Source: Candidatus Poribacteria bacterium (lineage in GTDB: Bacteria > Poribacteria > WGA-4E > PCPOR2b). Taken from it: DNA of 64,000 bases. The stretch lies in contig OZ220744.1 of assembly GCA_965116925.1 (NCBI GenBank), forward strand, positions 4,288,001 through 4,352,000. Direction: 5' to 3'. Numbering within the stretch: position 1 is the stretch's first letter; each line of letters begins with the position of its first letter. Positions 3,051-62,369 of this stretch are shown here, piece after piece. The notes beneath the pieces were generated by a model. That model did not search any database, was not told the DNA's origin, and saw only the letters and a list, made by a program, of their open reading frames with translations. The position numbers were made by a program, and so were the translations under genes.

Positions 3051-3078
3051 GTAGTGAACGCAGATCTGCGTTCACTAC
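3051..3078. repeat. GTAG-type REP, perfect 28-bp palindrome (family 1)
   Basis: gtagtgaacgcagatctgcgttcactac is its own reverse complement; identical copy at 8014-8041. Confidence 0.9.
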
Positions 3079-3097
3079 GAACTCAGGTGATTATTTT

Positions 3098-8013: not shown

Positions 8014-8041
8014 GTAGTGAACGCAGATCTGCGTTCACTAC
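8014..8041. repeat. GTAG-type REP, perfect palindrome (family 1), between convergent genes
   Basis: Identical to 3051-3078. Confidence 0.9.
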
Positions 8042-8068
8042 AATCTGGTGGAGTGCATAAGTCCTGAA

Positions 8069-39289: not shown

Positions 39290-39296
39290 TGTTGCC

Positions 39297-39397
39297 TATA
39301 GTGAGTCTTAGAATTAATGAGACACTCCAAACCGGTGCGGTTGGAAACCGCACCTACCGGGGGCGAAAGTGTCTATTTATTTTTTGAATTCACCATA
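39297..39397. mobile_element. TA-flanked MITE, short form (101 bp)
   Basis: Same shell as the long form, without the 118-bp inner insert. Confidence 0.8.
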
Positions 39398-39412
39398 AAT
39401 CGTTCCTAGAGG

Positions 39413-41667: not shown

Positions 41668-41961
41668 ATGACACCTCAGCCAACCCAAATTCAACGCCTT
41701 CCAGACGCAATTAGTGTTCAATGGAACGATGGACACCAAAGCGAGTATTCCCATCAACTGCTACGTCAAAGGTGCCCATGTGCACGGTGCCAATCAGAGC
41801 AATCGGATAAAAACCCGCTACGCCTGTTACCCACCAACTCGTTATCCAAAAACCTTACACTCGTTGATATACAGCGTGTCGGTCGTTACGCGATCCGGTT
41901 GATTTGGGCGGACGGCCACAAGACAGGCATCTATACATTTGATTTTCTGCGCTCGCTTTAA
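41668..41961 (+). CDS. DUF971 / gamma-butyrobetaine hydroxylase N-terminal-like metal-binding protein
   Basis: WNDGH.S.Y, LR..CPCA.C, VGRYA...W.DGH.TGIY. Confidence 0.9.
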   Translation: MTPQPTQIQRLPDAISVQWNDGHQSEYSHQLLRQRCPCARCQSEQSDKNPLRLLPTNSLSKNLTLVDIQRVGRYAIRLIWADGHKTGIYTFDFLRSL

Positions 41962-41986
41962 CCAAGTCTGATAGGGACGGTGTCCG

Positions 41987-42009
41987 GTTGATGAACCCCT
42001 TTCATCAAC
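41987..42009. terminator. Hairpin between convergent genes, possible terminator
   Basis: gttgatgaa-cccct-ttcatcaac. Confidence 0.4.
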
Positions 42010-42046
42010 TGATTCTCTCTCCTGTCACCTTTTCACGGATGGTTTG

Positions 42047-43048
42047 CTAATCATTTCCAGCAGCACTTTGATTGTCCACCTGTTCCTCCGATGAAAACAC
42101 CTTAAAATCACAGATAGCGTGCCGAAAAACAACGATTTTTGATTCGTTTTCTAAAATCATCTTAATCTCGTACCTGCTGACCCAATCCACCAATCCCCGA
42201 AAAACTTCTCCTTCCAGCATCGTGACTTCGATTGTGTGCCGAGCCCGCCGCGCTTGAACAATAGTTCGCGTATCGAGACTATAGCGTTTTTTTCGTTGTA
42301 TTATGGGTTTTAAGTTTTGTTCCTTAATTTCCTCGTTGTAGCGGATAATTGACTGTATGTCCGTAGCATCCTTCGCCTTGTAACAGTATTTGACATCGGT
42401 TTTCGGCAGTTCTTGTCTTTCTGCTTCCCCCCCGATAGGATTGGGATTCCGAGCAACTTGTAAAACGAAGTCGTATTTGGTGAATCCAGTGACTGTCACA
42501 GGTAGCAGCGTATGATTATACAATCCAAAAAACATGGGCGTTTGAAGACGGATCTGTTTCTGTGTGTAGAGATCGCCAAAGGTTGGCTGTTCATCAGGCG
42601 AGGAGGCTAGTTCTGGTTTGGGAGTGTGCGGAGGAGAAGGTTTCTGATCTGGGGGAGTATCAATCAATTCAGACGTTGCTGTTTTAACTCTTGGAGTTGA
42701 TAAAGCAGCCGGTGTGGGTCGAGTAGGACTTTGAGACGAGGCAAACGCCTCCTTCTCAGAACCATCTCTTGGCTGCTGAGGTGGGACATAGTTGCGAGGT
42801 ATCACTGCCTTACCTTGCCTCAATCGCTTCTGCTCAAGTGGGGTAAGCAGGATTTTGACGTTCTGGGCGATAGGACCTCTATCGCCAACAGCTACTTCGT
42901 ATCTGACATGCTGTCCTACGTGAATTTCGTCGTATCCACCCTGGATCGCGGAGATATGCATAAAAACATCTCCTTCACCGGTGTCTTGAGCGATGAATCC
43001 ATACCCTTTGTCTGAGTTATAATATTTGACTCGTCCCGTTAGCATCAT
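42047..43048 (-). CDS. Cold-shock domain protein with two C-terminal Hfq/LSm-like domains
   Basis: aa3-67 CSD with KGYGFI (RNP1) and VFMH (RNP2); Pro-rich linker; aa~158-223 and ~259-316 Sm-like, the latter ending VVFRHAI. Confidence 0.78.
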   Translation of the reverse strand: MMLTGRVKYYNSDKGYGFIAQDTGEGDVFMHISAIQGGYDEIHVGQHVRYEVAVGDRGPIAQNVKILLTPLEQKRLRQGKAVIPRNYVPPQQPRDGSEKEAFASSQSPTRPTPAALSTPRVKTATSELIDTPPDQKPSPPHTPKPELASSPDEQPTFGDLYTQKQIRLQTPMFFGLYNHTLLPVTVTGFTKYDFVLQVARNPNPIGGEAERQELPKTDVKYCYKAKDATDIQSIIRYNEEIKEQNLKPIIQRKKRYSLDTRTIVQARRARHTIEVTMLEGEVFRGLVDWVSRYEIKMILENESKIVVFRHAICDFKVFSSEEQVDNQSAAGND

Positions 43049-43093
43049 TTTTTCTCCGTTGGATTAAAGATTTCCGATTGGAATGCGAGCGAT

Positions 43094-44979: not shown

Positions 44980-45006
44980 GTTTCCTACCTCTCTTTTTCA
45001 GCGTTT

Positions 45007-45230
45007 TATAGTGGACCTTAGAATTAATGAAACACTCCAAATCGGTGCGGTTACATGAAGATAAAAAAAACAGTTCGGTAATTTGCTAGCGACACCGGCG
45101 CGGGGGAAAACCGCGCCTACCGTGTGTTTCGAGGAAAATCGAGATTACCGATTTAAATACTTAAATCTCATCAAACCGCACCTACCAAGTGAGGGGCGAA
45201 AGTGTCTATTTATTTTTAGAATTCACTATA
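45007..45230. mobile_element. TA-flanked MITE, long nested form
   Basis: tatagtggaccttagaattaat...atttatttttagaattcactata. Confidence 0.82.
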
Positions 45231-45466
45231 GTACTATGGATTATCTAGCACGTTTTCTATTTTGAGTTTGAACAGGAGCTCTCTCATTCTTGACCGGGTA
45301 TTGAAAACACTCCCTGCATTTTATCCAATTCCGTTTCGATTTTCAAGCCTTTTCTAATCTGGGAAGCGGTGCCAAACTTACAACCCAACCTTTAGAAGGG
45401 GCAAGCGTCAAATCTGTTGTCATCTAGATATGGAATCGCCACTGTTTCAACAAGTAGGATACCACA

Positions 45467-58618: not shown

Positions 58619-58727
58619 ATGTCGCCCCGCTGGGGTTTTCGGTTACTTGTTTACCCGTGTACGATAGACATGTCGCCCCTCTGGGGCTAAATGAACTGCT
58701 AAACCAATGCAAACTACCACCATTGAT

Positions 58728-58829
58728 TATAGTAGATTTTAGAATTAATGGGACACGCCAAACCGGTGCGGTTACAAACCCCACCTACCGGGCGGCGCAA
58801 GTGTTTCTTTATTTTTTGAATTCACTATA
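58728..58829. mobile_element. TA-flanked MITE, short form (102 bp)
   Basis: Matches 23353-23573 minus the inner insert. Confidence 0.82.
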
Positions 58830-58865
58830 ATATGATGTTATCATACTTTGCGAAATAGGTGATCG

Positions 58866-59717: not shown

Positions 59718-59745
59718 GTAGGGAACGCAGATCTGCGTTCCCTAT
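59718..59745. repeat. Family-1 REP palindrome abutting a truncated family-2 REP
   Basis: gtaggttgggtga (59705-59717) followed by gtagggaacgcagatctgcgttccctat. Confidence 0.75.
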
Positions 59746-59759
59746 AATCTGAAGTTCAC

Positions 59760-60806
59760 CTAGGGAACCTCCACGCCTAGCGATGTTGCTGTCTCGGTGA
59801 CGGACTGCCATATATCTTCGGCGATGGGGATACCGTCGCGTTGACGGGCGGCGCGTGTCCGAACCTCTGGATCGCCGGGCATCAGGACTTCATCGAAGCC
59901 GGGTGCCGGTGGAATCGCCCGGACGCGATGTCCCATTTCATCAGCGCGATCCGCATAATCCGAGAAGGGTTGGAACAGATCCGCTTTGAAAGCGATAAAT
60001 GTTACACCTTGATGCCGCATAATCGGACCGCCGTGTTTGGGATCAACAAAAGCATCCGCTCCTGTGAAGATTCGCCCTAGGAACTCTGTTGCCATCATCA
60101 AGGCATAGCCCTTGTGCCCGCCAAACGGGACATGCCCACCGCCATTAACGAAATCGTTCGCATCCGTGCTGGGATTCCCATCTTTGTCGACAATGCAGTT
60201 GGGCGGTAACGGCTCCCCTCTGCGCTGGGCGTTGAGAACTTTGACACCGGAAACTGCTGCTGTTGCAAAGTCGAACATCATTTGCGGCGCATCGCCGGAG
60301 GGAAATCCCATTGCTAGTGGATTGGTATGGAGAACCGTTTTGCTGCCACCGTAGGGAACGGTTGCGGGTTCTTCTTCAGAGTATCCTCCCGCCCAAACCA
60401 TAGCGATTAGTCTTTCAGATGCAGCCATCTCCACATAATGACCTAGTCTCCCGATATGATCTGCCTGAACAAGTCCGACCACGGCAATGTCATTCTCTTT
60501 CGCTTTTGTTATGGCGACTTCTATCGCATATTTGGCAGCGACTTGACCGAAGGTCCAATTTCCTGTTATTTGGGCACTTGTGGCGGTCTCGTTTAGAATT
60601 TCCGGATGGGCTGTTGCTACAATCTCACCGGATTTGGAGGATTCCACATAACGCGGTAAATGCCAGATACCGTGTGTATCAACGCCGCTAAGGTTTGCCA
60701 GAACTAGATGCTCTGCTACGTCTTCTGCGTTTGGCTCATCGGCACCTGCGGCCAAGAGAACGTTCTTGACCAGTTGATGAAGTTCGTCCCCTGTCTTGAT
60801 TATCAT
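59760..60806 (-). CDS. Ldh_2-family oxidoreductase (type 2 malate/L-lactate/sulfolactate dehydrogenase)
   Basis: G.DTHG, HIGRLG.Y, TNP, FDFAT, GGHKGYAL, PGDPE. Confidence 0.92.
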   Translation of the reverse strand: MIIKTGDELHQLVKNVLLAAGADEPNAEDVAEHLVLANLSGVDTHGIWHLPRYVESSKSGEIVATAHPEILNETATSAQITGNWTFGQVAAKYAIEVAITKAKENDIAVVGLVQADHIGRLGHYVEMAASERLIAMVWAGGYSEEEPATVPYGGSKTVLHTNPLAMGFPSGDAPQMMFDFATAAVSGVKVLNAQRRGEPLPPNCIVDKDGNPSTDANDFVNGGGHVPFGGHKGYALMMATEFLGRIFTGADAFVDPKHGGPIMRHQGVTFIAFKADLFQPFSDYADRADEMGHRVRAIPPAPGFDEVLMPGDPEVRTRAARQRDGIPIAEDIWQSVTETATSLGVEVP

Positions 60807-62171: not shown

Positions 62172-62369
62172 GTAGGGCGGGTGTCCTCGCCCGATTCAAT
62201 ACTTCGGTTATTATAACCCAAGTTGCTAGACAGTTATGATACACCTGTCGCTCCTCTGGAGCTAATGAAACATAATAAGTAATGCGTCAGAAGAAGCGGA
62301 ACGCAGATCTGCGTTCCCTACGAATTAACCTGACTAGATCGGCGGGGTCGGGCAGGATGCCCGACCTAC
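62172..62369. repeat. Cluster of REP and MITE fragments
   Basis: gtagggcgggtgtcctcgccc; lone IS982-type end acccaagttgctag at 62216; cgctcctctggagc; family-1 palindrome 62298-62321; gtcgggcaggatgcccgacctac. Confidence 0.7.

Follow-up and report, generated by a model that had tools for sequence, protein, structure and literature searches.

A cold-shock domain fused to a putative double-Hfq unit in a protein of Candidatus Poribacteria

Among bacterial RNA chaperones, Hfq and the cold-shock proteins are the two textbook examples, and each is as a rule a small protein that stands alone. The signatures of Hfq are an Sm1 glycine and an Sm2-type motif, [YF]-[KR]-H-A-[IV], and its cyanobacterial type is represented by the Pfam family PF21979, Hfq_1. 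The cold-shock domain (CSD) is defined by an RNP1-type motif, K-G-[FY]-G-F-I, and an RNP2-type motif, V-F-x-H. Here we describe a gene of Candidatus Poribacteria bacterium (assembly GCA_965116925.1) that lies in a stretch of 64,000 nucleotides, positions 4,288,001 to 4,352,000 of contig OZ220744.1, which we call the window. From its architecture and homology, the encoded protein is very probably a CSD joined by a tether to two Hfq-type Sm domains, the N module and the C module, referred to together as the double-Hfq unit. The gene and the parts of its product have the following window coordinates.

42047..43048, minus strand: whole coding sequence, 333 codons plus the stop codon (42047-42049), from reading of the open reading frame, with 195 homologs at E ≤ 1e-3
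42851..43042, minus strand: CSD, residues 3-66, with RNP1-like KGYGFI and RNP2-like VFMHI, from PF00313, CspB 2i5m and the model
42794..42850, minus strand: residues 67-85, a conserved basic extension with 9 of 19 positions invariant and a modelled helix at 70-77
42593..42793, minus strand: variable disordered tether, residues 86-152 (52% P/S/T/Q, 0 of 67 invariant)
42377..42592, minus strand: N module, residues 153-224, a diverged Hfq-type Sm domain
42272..42376, minus strand: inter-module connector, residues 225-259, with short helices 225-234 and 239-243
42095..42271, minus strand: C module, residues 260-318, an Hfq-type Sm domain with FRHAI at 308-312, G280 and W289
42050..42094, minus strand: variable acidic C-terminal tail, residues 319-333

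The closest described proteins each resemble one part of this chain. Like Hfq (3hfo, 6gwk, 1kq1), both modules have, in the model, a helix and a five-stranded Sm fold, and the C module also shares the Sm2-type motif FRHAI, the Sm1 glycine G280, the pocket aromatic and the rim arginine. However, an Hfq protomer is a single domain of 70-100 residues, whereas here two domains stand in one chain; the N module carries PKTDV and lacks the Sm1 glycine, the distal-face residues are missing, the chain also bears a CSD and a long tether, and the family scores lie below the cut-offs. The CspA family (2i5m/1csp and 1mjc) aligns over the whole 65-residue CSD with E-values of 4e-15 to 5e-14 and shares both RNP-type motifs, but its members stand alone at about 70 residues, while the CSD here is the N-terminal head of a 333-residue protein. 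Precedents for an Sm domain with an extra domain are the zinc-finger-Hfq fusions of archaeal plasmids and Pyrobaculum SmAP3 (PMC3710371), which differ in having, as far as the accessible part of that source describes them, one Sm domain each and no CSD. These are the only fusions given in the accessible part of that 2013 review of Sm proteins, where the term 'cold shock' does not occur. A survey of small barrels, in the part available, treats tandem Tudor and OB/SH3 barrels.

The original prediction, made from the sequence alone, knew of no characterised protein with this architecture, and our literature search likewise found no description of one. In the literature as far as it was accessible, with subscription journals largely outside the scope, no CSD-Hfq fusion and no tandem or duplicated Hfq was found. 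Nothing was found that pairs tandem Hfq with Novosphingobium aromaticivorans, or an Hfq-like protein with Planctomycetes, and the publications on Poribacteria with Hfq or cold shock include, by title and abstract, none on a CSD-double-Hfq protein. An early survey of the distribution of Hfq is said to have perhaps included a two-repeat alphaproteobacterial Hfq, and Burkholderia Hfq2 is reportedly a non-hexameric long Hfq.

PF00313 matches residues 4-65 of the protein with E 7.8e-19 and 67.8 bits, where the cut-off is 27, and covers profile positions 2-64 of 66. KGYGFI (residues 14-19) and VFMHI (28-32) agree with the two RNP-type motifs, so the complete CSD that had been predicted for residues 3-67 is present. 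A phmmer search of the PDB sequences with the whole protein gave CspB 2i5m at E 3.9e-15, and the model of the domain has five strands, with a predicted local distance difference test score (pLDDT) of about 78-91. K14, F18, I19, F29 and H31 are invariant in the conservation alignment, which holds 37 family members with identity down to 44%. Since the best NCBIfam score, 68.5 bits, does not reach the CspA/CspE equivalog cut-off of 120, we class the protein as CSD-containing and not as a CspA/E orthologue. Three CSD matches were found in the window genome, two of them in stand-alone frames of 68 and 72 residues. Thus, the fusion is an addition to ordinary cold-shock proteins and not a replacement, because the genome has two of these.

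The segment between the CSD and the N module had been described as a Pro/Ser/Thr-rich linker of about 85 residues. This description suits residues 86-152, which are variable and consist to 52% of P, S, T and Q, but not residues 67-85, which are conserved. In the full-length model, the pLDDT of the tether is below 50 over residues 90-137 and 140-150. The invariant positions number 16 of 64 in the CSD (residues 3-66), 13 of 72 in the N module (153-224) and 17 of 59 in the C module (260-318). The two Hfq-type modules are thus conserved to the degree seen in the CSD, unlike the tether.

In Pfam, the C module is matched by PF21979 Hfq_1 on residues 261-314 with 21 bits and by PF17209 Hfq on residues 264-313 with 18 bits. 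Three NCBIfam Hfq models match the protein at E 3e-4 to 4e-3, and in a phmmer search of the PDB with the single protein, no Hfq row was better than E about 0.2. An alignment of the tandem unit only, A2, was built from 43 sequences, drawn from the window genome and a further 41 genomes of the phylum. At E ≤ 0.01, Hfq_1 is matched by 37 of these 43 members and Hfq by 31. Searched against the PDB, the A2 profile gave 48 rows at E ≤ 10, 38 of them Hfq or Hfq-like chains, and every Hfq row falls on profile positions 88-158, that is, on the C module. Four Hfq rows lie at E ≤ 1e-3, the best at 5.1e-6; the leading ones are the Methanocaldococcus (M. jannaschii) Hfq-like chains 5dy9/2qtx (5e-6, 7e-6), Caulobacter 6gwk (1e-4) and B. 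subtilis 3ahu (8e-4). The C-terminal Hfq pattern with FRHAI that the original prediction had read is thereby supported by a family profile, and its motif is kept among homologs, F308 and H310 being invariant and R309, A311 and I312 conserved at ≥ 90% in the 37 sequences. Judged by sequence, the C module is a relative of Hfq. Its residues Y293 (the aromatic), R309-H310 and R267 align with the uridine pocket and rim of Hfq, and G280 with the Sm1 glycine.

The tandem unit was modelled by AlphaFold2 from A2 with a pLDDT of 87.3 and a predicted template modelling score (pTM) of 0.83. The model, on which this assignment rests, predicts the Sm fold twice, each time an N-terminal helix and a five-stranded bent sheet. 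A structural scan of 48,161 chains, independent of Foldseek, placed the C module on 3hfo (Z 8.2) and 6gwk (Z 8.1), both with a root-mean-square deviation (rmsd) of 1.0 Å over 60 residues. With the two-domain model as the query, Foldseek returned mostly Hfq chains in its top rows, with template modelling (TM) scores of 0.69-0.89 normalised to the target, and zero rows at E ≤ 0.001. The expectation that the C-terminal segments model as Sm folds holds for both modules, each of which superposes on solved Hfq over 60 residues.

Residues 153-224 have no Pfam, NCBIfam or PDB sequence match, and no Hfq row of the A2 profile falls on them. The modelled N module consists of helix 157-167 and strands 171-176, 181-189, 193-198, 211-215 and 219-224, mostly with pLDDT > 90. 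It superposes on S. aureus Hfq (1kq1_A) with Z 6.6 and an rmsd of 1.2 Å over 60 of 60 residues, and the structural scan gave further Hfq matches to 5szd (Z 6.6) and 2qtx (Z 5.0). A bridge in sequence is a 93-residue single-domain protein of the outgroup genome G003, which lies above the Pfam cut-offs with 40.7 bits for Hfq_1 and 29.6 bits for Hfq. Over the same residues, this protein scores 36.5 bits on the N-module profile and 22.9 bits on the C-module profile; the best of 600 shuffled controls reached 7.2 and 6.2 bits, respectively. The helix and five strands, the match to 1kq1 and the score of the bridge protein all speak for the more diverged second Sm fold that had been proposed at about residues 158-223. 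Because the models superpose on Hfq and the bridge protein matches both profiles, we conclude that an Hfq_1-type domain gave rise to both modules and that divergence has carried the N module past the reach of current libraries.

The lack of any family or PDB sequence match on residues 153-224 would also be expected if the N-terminal 'second Sm domain' were a chance resemblance and the protein had only one Hfq-like domain. Furthermore, a comparison of the N- and C-module profiles by hhalign was not significant (E 0.011-0.017, probability < 3%). We consider a chance resemblance highly improbable, since the model is confident and superposes on Hfq over its full length, the bridge protein scores far higher than the shuffles on both profiles, and 13 of the 72 N-module positions are invariant.

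In the N module, PKTDV (215-219) replaces the YKHAI-type motif, H179 stands at the position of the Sm1 glycine, and the lysine alone is kept of the Hfq pocket and rim residues, as the invariant K216. Its invariant set is G158, L160, Y161, K164, Q165, T170, F174, Y177, K216, K220, C222, Y223 and K224, which gives the module a predicted Lys/Tyr-rich invariant surface of its own. In the ESM Atlas, all matches to the N module lie below 0.9, with clusters of FljA-type repressors at 0.86-0.87 and Hfq clusters at 0.77-0.82; we take these as leads only. The connector, residues 225-259, is conserved and confidently modelled, and it couples to the sheet of the C module through the pairs I231-I305, I235-F283 and I235-M277.

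Sm rings close when strand 4 of one unit pairs with strand 5 of the next. Covariation was analysed by mean-field coupling over 315 sequences (effective number, Meff, 182; 12403 pairs) and recovered strand pairs within the modules, for example, F283-M297 at rank 4. The strongest couplings run from the N to the C module, K220-E281 ranking first and K220-E279 third, and the pore loops are coupled through T217-H310 (rank 19) and K216-H310 (rank 31). Two couplings connect strand edges, L214 in strand 4 of the N module with F315 in strand 5 of the C module (rank 21) and C222 in strand 5 of the N module with F308 in strand 4 of the C module (rank 34). Since these pairs lie on opposite edges of the sheet, they cannot both be contacts of a single N-C pair. 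Such couplings on opposite edges are what a closed ring with alternating modules would produce, and they are suggestive of one. A ring of three chains, that is, a trimeric pseudo-hexamer with alternating N and C modules, is a plausible though tentative assembly.

The main alternative for the assembly is a canonical homohexamer of six chains formed through the C modules alone, with the N modules as peripheral barrels and six CSDs hanging off the ring. The Sm2-type motif and the Sm1 glycine of Hfq are kept only in the C module, as this arrangement would have it; a coupling between strands 4 and 5 of the C module, V306-K316, ranks 73, in the top 1%; and the connector helix, coupled to the C-module sheet, could hold the N module aside. 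However, the pTM of 0.83 indicates a fixed packing of N on C, the top couplings are N-to-C, and both outer edges of the N-C pair bear couplings. Placement of the N module in the ring is also the simpler history for a module derived from a ring-forming Hfq-type domain. We consider the C-only hexamer unlikely.

If the alternating three-chain ring is correct, its closest parallel would be the eukaryotic Sm/Lsm hetero-rings, with diverged Sm paralogs at fixed alternating positions. Lsm chains appear in the structural scan of the double-Hfq modules at Z 5-7. The difference is that the paralogs are covalently joined here and that six units are predicted, compared with seven. The Hfq ring itself is presented in the available part of the small-barrel survey as a cyclic sheet of 6x5 strands, with Gln8 and Arg16/17/19 named.

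We suggest that the double-Hfq unit arose by duplication of an Hfq_1-like domain and that the protein would have four working parts: a CspA-type CSD, the basic, conserved extension, a tether of about 65 disordered residues and the double-Hfq unit. In the proposed mechanism, the double units would assemble into a closed ring of the Sm type with alternating N and C modules, three chains giving the pseudo-hexamer. RNA-binding pockets would form at the N/C interfaces of this ring, and the three tethered CSDs would capture or melt single-stranded RNA near it. A role in RNA binding or as an RNA chaperone is likely. The explanation that we favour for the whole, and which we regard as somewhat likely, is a composite single-stranded RNA-binding protein made of a double-Hfq ring and tethered CSDs.

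Besides the hhalign result, several points weigh against this explanation. The analysis shows the domain make-up, homology, predicted folds, conservation and distribution; RNA binding, the assembly and stoichiometry of the ring, and chaperone activity are what we infer for a protein of an uncultured organism. The protein itself scores below the Hfq cut-offs, with 21 and 18 bits against 27 for the two Pfam families and 19.7 against 61.7 for TIGR02383 of NCBIfam. The covariation is noisy at a Meff of 182, and its support for the ring is only suggestive because non-contact blocks reach ranks 56-57 and the homotypic pair of C-module strands 4 and 5 reaches rank 73. Thr276 stands where the distal-face aromatic of Hfq, a tyrosine, aligns, and E279 and E281 are invariant and coupled to K220 of the N module. 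For both of these reasons, a canonical A-rich distal site in the double-Hfq unit is unlikely; the couplings suggest that the surface matching the A-rich site of Hfq may instead serve the packing of N on C within the chain. Finally, relatives fused to helix-turn-helix (HTH), GmrSD, ParB_N or HU domains suggest DNA-related or defence settings.

These relatives were found by searching the A2 profile against 1.84 billion representatives, clustered at 50% identity, of which 521 match at E ≤ 1e-3, 235 at E ≤ 1e-10 and 35 at E ≤ 1e-30. Details were taken from the best 150 of the 521; most of these span both modules, and their lengths range from 48 to 1142 residues. A Pfam scan of 72 of the best 150 found a CSD in 17, N-terminal in 15 and C-terminal, after GmrSD and Hfq modules, in two. 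The other partners among the 72 are HTH_3, DnaJ_C, HEAT, GmrSD_N/C, S1, ParB_N and HU. No Pfam match at all was found in 21 of the 72, and the N module was assigned to no family in any of them. Several scanned representatives exceed the PF17209 cut-off, for example, P0149 with 44.3 bits and P0207 with 37.7 bits, and three members carry the JGI label 'sRNA-binding regulator protein Hfq'. Organism names from outside the Poribacteria could be read for two members only, 'Candidatus Xenobia bacterium' and 'Deltaproteobacteria bacterium'. In the search for related loci, P0149 matched only itself, and the alignment A4 matched none. Some long members have 2-4 C-type modules spaced by about 150 residues. 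Large fusions of this kind, with 2-4 Hfq modules joined to GmrSD, S1 or a C-terminal CSD, are P0163 (1142 residues), P0264 (849), P0261 (482) and P0158 (577). Hfq-module proteins in large frames of 750-1430 residues also occur in the phylum, which seems to redeploy Hfq modules in enzymes of a defence type.

This range of partners is the ground for a third possibility, in which no ring forms and the protein is a monomeric or dimeric sensor or binder of nucleic acid in the manner of WYL proteins, its double barrel and CSD together binding single-stranded RNA or DNA in a regulatory or defence role. WYL sensors (DriD, BrxR, CapW and PafBC) contain Sm-like small barrels that sense nucleic acid or ligands in regulators, and fusion to HTH and defence domains is also seen in the double-Hfq relatives. 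These regulators were found in the structural scan at Z 5.1-5.8. However, that match is weaker, with an rmsd of 3-6 Å, than the match to Hfq, at Z 8.2/8.1 and 1.0 Å; no sequence signal accompanies it, whereas sequence homology points to Hfq; and the gene described here has, by Pfam, no DNA-binding or enzymatic partner domain. We regard a non-ring sensor as improbable and retain the RNA-binding ring with tethered CSDs.

A word-indexed homolog search gave the 195 proteins at E ≤ 1e-3, with details from the best 120. A precomputed CSD match is present in 119 of these 120, in keeping with the conserved architecture expected of homologs, and an Hfq_1 or Hfq match in 23. All three organism-named entries among the best 120 are 'Candidatus Poribacteria bacterium', and the homologs are annotated at source as 'CspA family cold shock protein', 'cold shock domain-containing protein' or 'hypothetical'. 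Within the phylum, a tandem query matched 170 of 176 genomes and 132 of the 133 of high quality. The six unmatched among the 176 are three genomes of families f10/f11 and three f8 genomes of 61-79% completeness. The CSD-fused form occurs in families f1-f4, in f5 (G005) and in f7 (G008, with an extra C-terminal HTH). Forms without a CSD and with an Arg/Gly-rich basic tail occur in f5, f6, f8 and f9, and the window genome has one such form as a paralog; in f6, f8 and f9, basic- or RGG-tailed forms are the sole type seen.

In a profile search, no hfq of the window genome exceeded the Pfam cut-off, which answers the question of a canonical hfq that arose with the original prediction. It encodes two tandem-Hfq proteins. 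On the A2 profile, the CSD-double-Hfq protein scores 251.6 bits over profile positions 1-161, with both modules matched, and its CSD-less paralog scores 187 bits. A third Hfq-like gene encodes a protein with 21.1 bits for Hfq_1, below the cut-off, and 18.6 bits on the C-module profile. The two further genes are located as follows.

L002:1477-2124 = G000:C1 ~4072574-4073221, outside the window, minus strand: CSD-less paralog, 216 residues, basic Arg/Lys/His/Ser-rich N-tail plus double-Hfq unit
L006:1459-1812 = G000:C1 ~3198524-3198877, minus strand: 118-residue protein, predicted coiled-coil-like N half plus a single Sm-like C half

An Hfq model matches above the cut-off in 53 of the 176 genomes, nearly always in frames of 155-360 or more than 750 residues. 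The matches in short frames are in G001 (93 and 104 residues), G003 (96), G100 (101) and G098 (80, on a contig of about 1 kb). Among the loci read, Pfam-confirmed stand-alone Hfq-type frames, both of 93 residues, were found only in the outgroup genomes G001 and G003, and these two are without the tandem unit. The complementarity of tandem and stand-alone Hfq amounts to roughly one evolutionary event and is not a statistical test.

Some further variants were observed among the relatives. A motif T-[LR]-[VI]-W-[TR]-P is present near the N terminus of basic-tailed and some CSD forms (L048, L050, L052, L054, L076, L077; P0127, P0133), and in G008 (L077) it is placed after the CSD extension. In genome G106, the CSD-tandem frame (L080:457-2097, minus strand; 547 residues) extends by about 200 residues with a Cys-rich C-terminal part. 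The genus g18 has further proteins of 195-273 residues (L085:638-1222, plus strand; L045:943-1686, plus strand; L047:1495-2313, minus strand). The C half of L085 scores 41.1 bits, above the Pfam Hfq cut-off, and the six-frame matches of L045 and L047 score 42.6 and 42.4 bits. These g18 proteins, in which the part before the Hfq match resembles a further diverged barrel, may be a second double-module lineage.

The 333-residue frame starts with ATG, and in the alignment of family members, the second Met is the usual start among homologs. A polysaccharide-deacetylase gene lies on the same strand, 46 bp upstream. The other features near the gene are the following.

43054..43057, minus strand: Shine-Dalgarno-like GGAG, 5 nt 5' of the ATG; position derived by hand from the sequence
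41985..42011, no strand assigned: terminator-like hairpin between the CSD-double-Hfq gene and the convergent GBBH-like_N gene; from a consensus scan only
41668-41961, plus strand: small GBBH-like_N (DUF971) gene, convergent with the CSD-double-Hfq gene

Neighbours were compared across 42 related loci with flanks of only about 1.5 kb. The GBBH-like_N (DUF971) gene is kept in 24 of the 42, in two families including f4, and a gene like an iron-containing alcohol dehydrogenase (Fe-ADH) is adjacent in six. The polysaccharide-deacetylase gene is adjacent in 15, all of them in the genus of the window genome. With adjacency in merely 15 of 42 loci and such short flanks, we do not claim an operon with the polysaccharide-deacetylase gene. 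Contigs from RNA libraries of three studies bear relatives of the gene at 85-95% likeness, and in two of these contigs, the tether region differs in its letters. Of the sampled words, 4-6% were present in RNA runs, and the uncovered parts carry no meaning. The RNA-library contigs are consistent with expression and with variability of the tether and prove neither.

The original prediction had remarked on an abundance of palindromic repeats, and the window does contain several families of short repeats between genes whose cores are palindromic (D4, D2/D3, D7 and D13). The positions recorded, in window coordinates, are as follows.

670-707, 3056-3093, 8019-8056, 59723-59760 and 62299-62336: repeat family D4, core GAACGCAGATCTGCGTTC
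39292-39405, 45002-45238 and 58723-58837: repeat families D2/D3, examples
12496, 23340 and 44994: repeat D1, 193 nt, three copies

With 521 representatives and fusions to HTH, S1, HU and GmrSD, the double-Hfq family suggests itself as a reusable, uncharacterised nucleic-acid-binding unit. It is possible, though we hold it as rather doubtful, that this lineage swapped its single-domain Hfq for a duplicated Hfq that forms an alternating three-chain ring, couples melting by the CSD to matching, and has been reused across phyla as a movable nucleic-acid module of regulators and defence enzymes. Because the N module is invisible to family libraries and the proteins are annotated as 'cold shock protein' or 'hypothetical', scores of Hfq as absent from such lineages in genome surveys are probably misleading. 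If our proposal is correct, a duplicated Hfq with differentiated halves would show homomeric Sm rings becoming hetero-type, a step otherwise inferred only for the eukaryotic Sm/Lsm proteins, and would provide a defined system for asking what alternate positions in the ring do.

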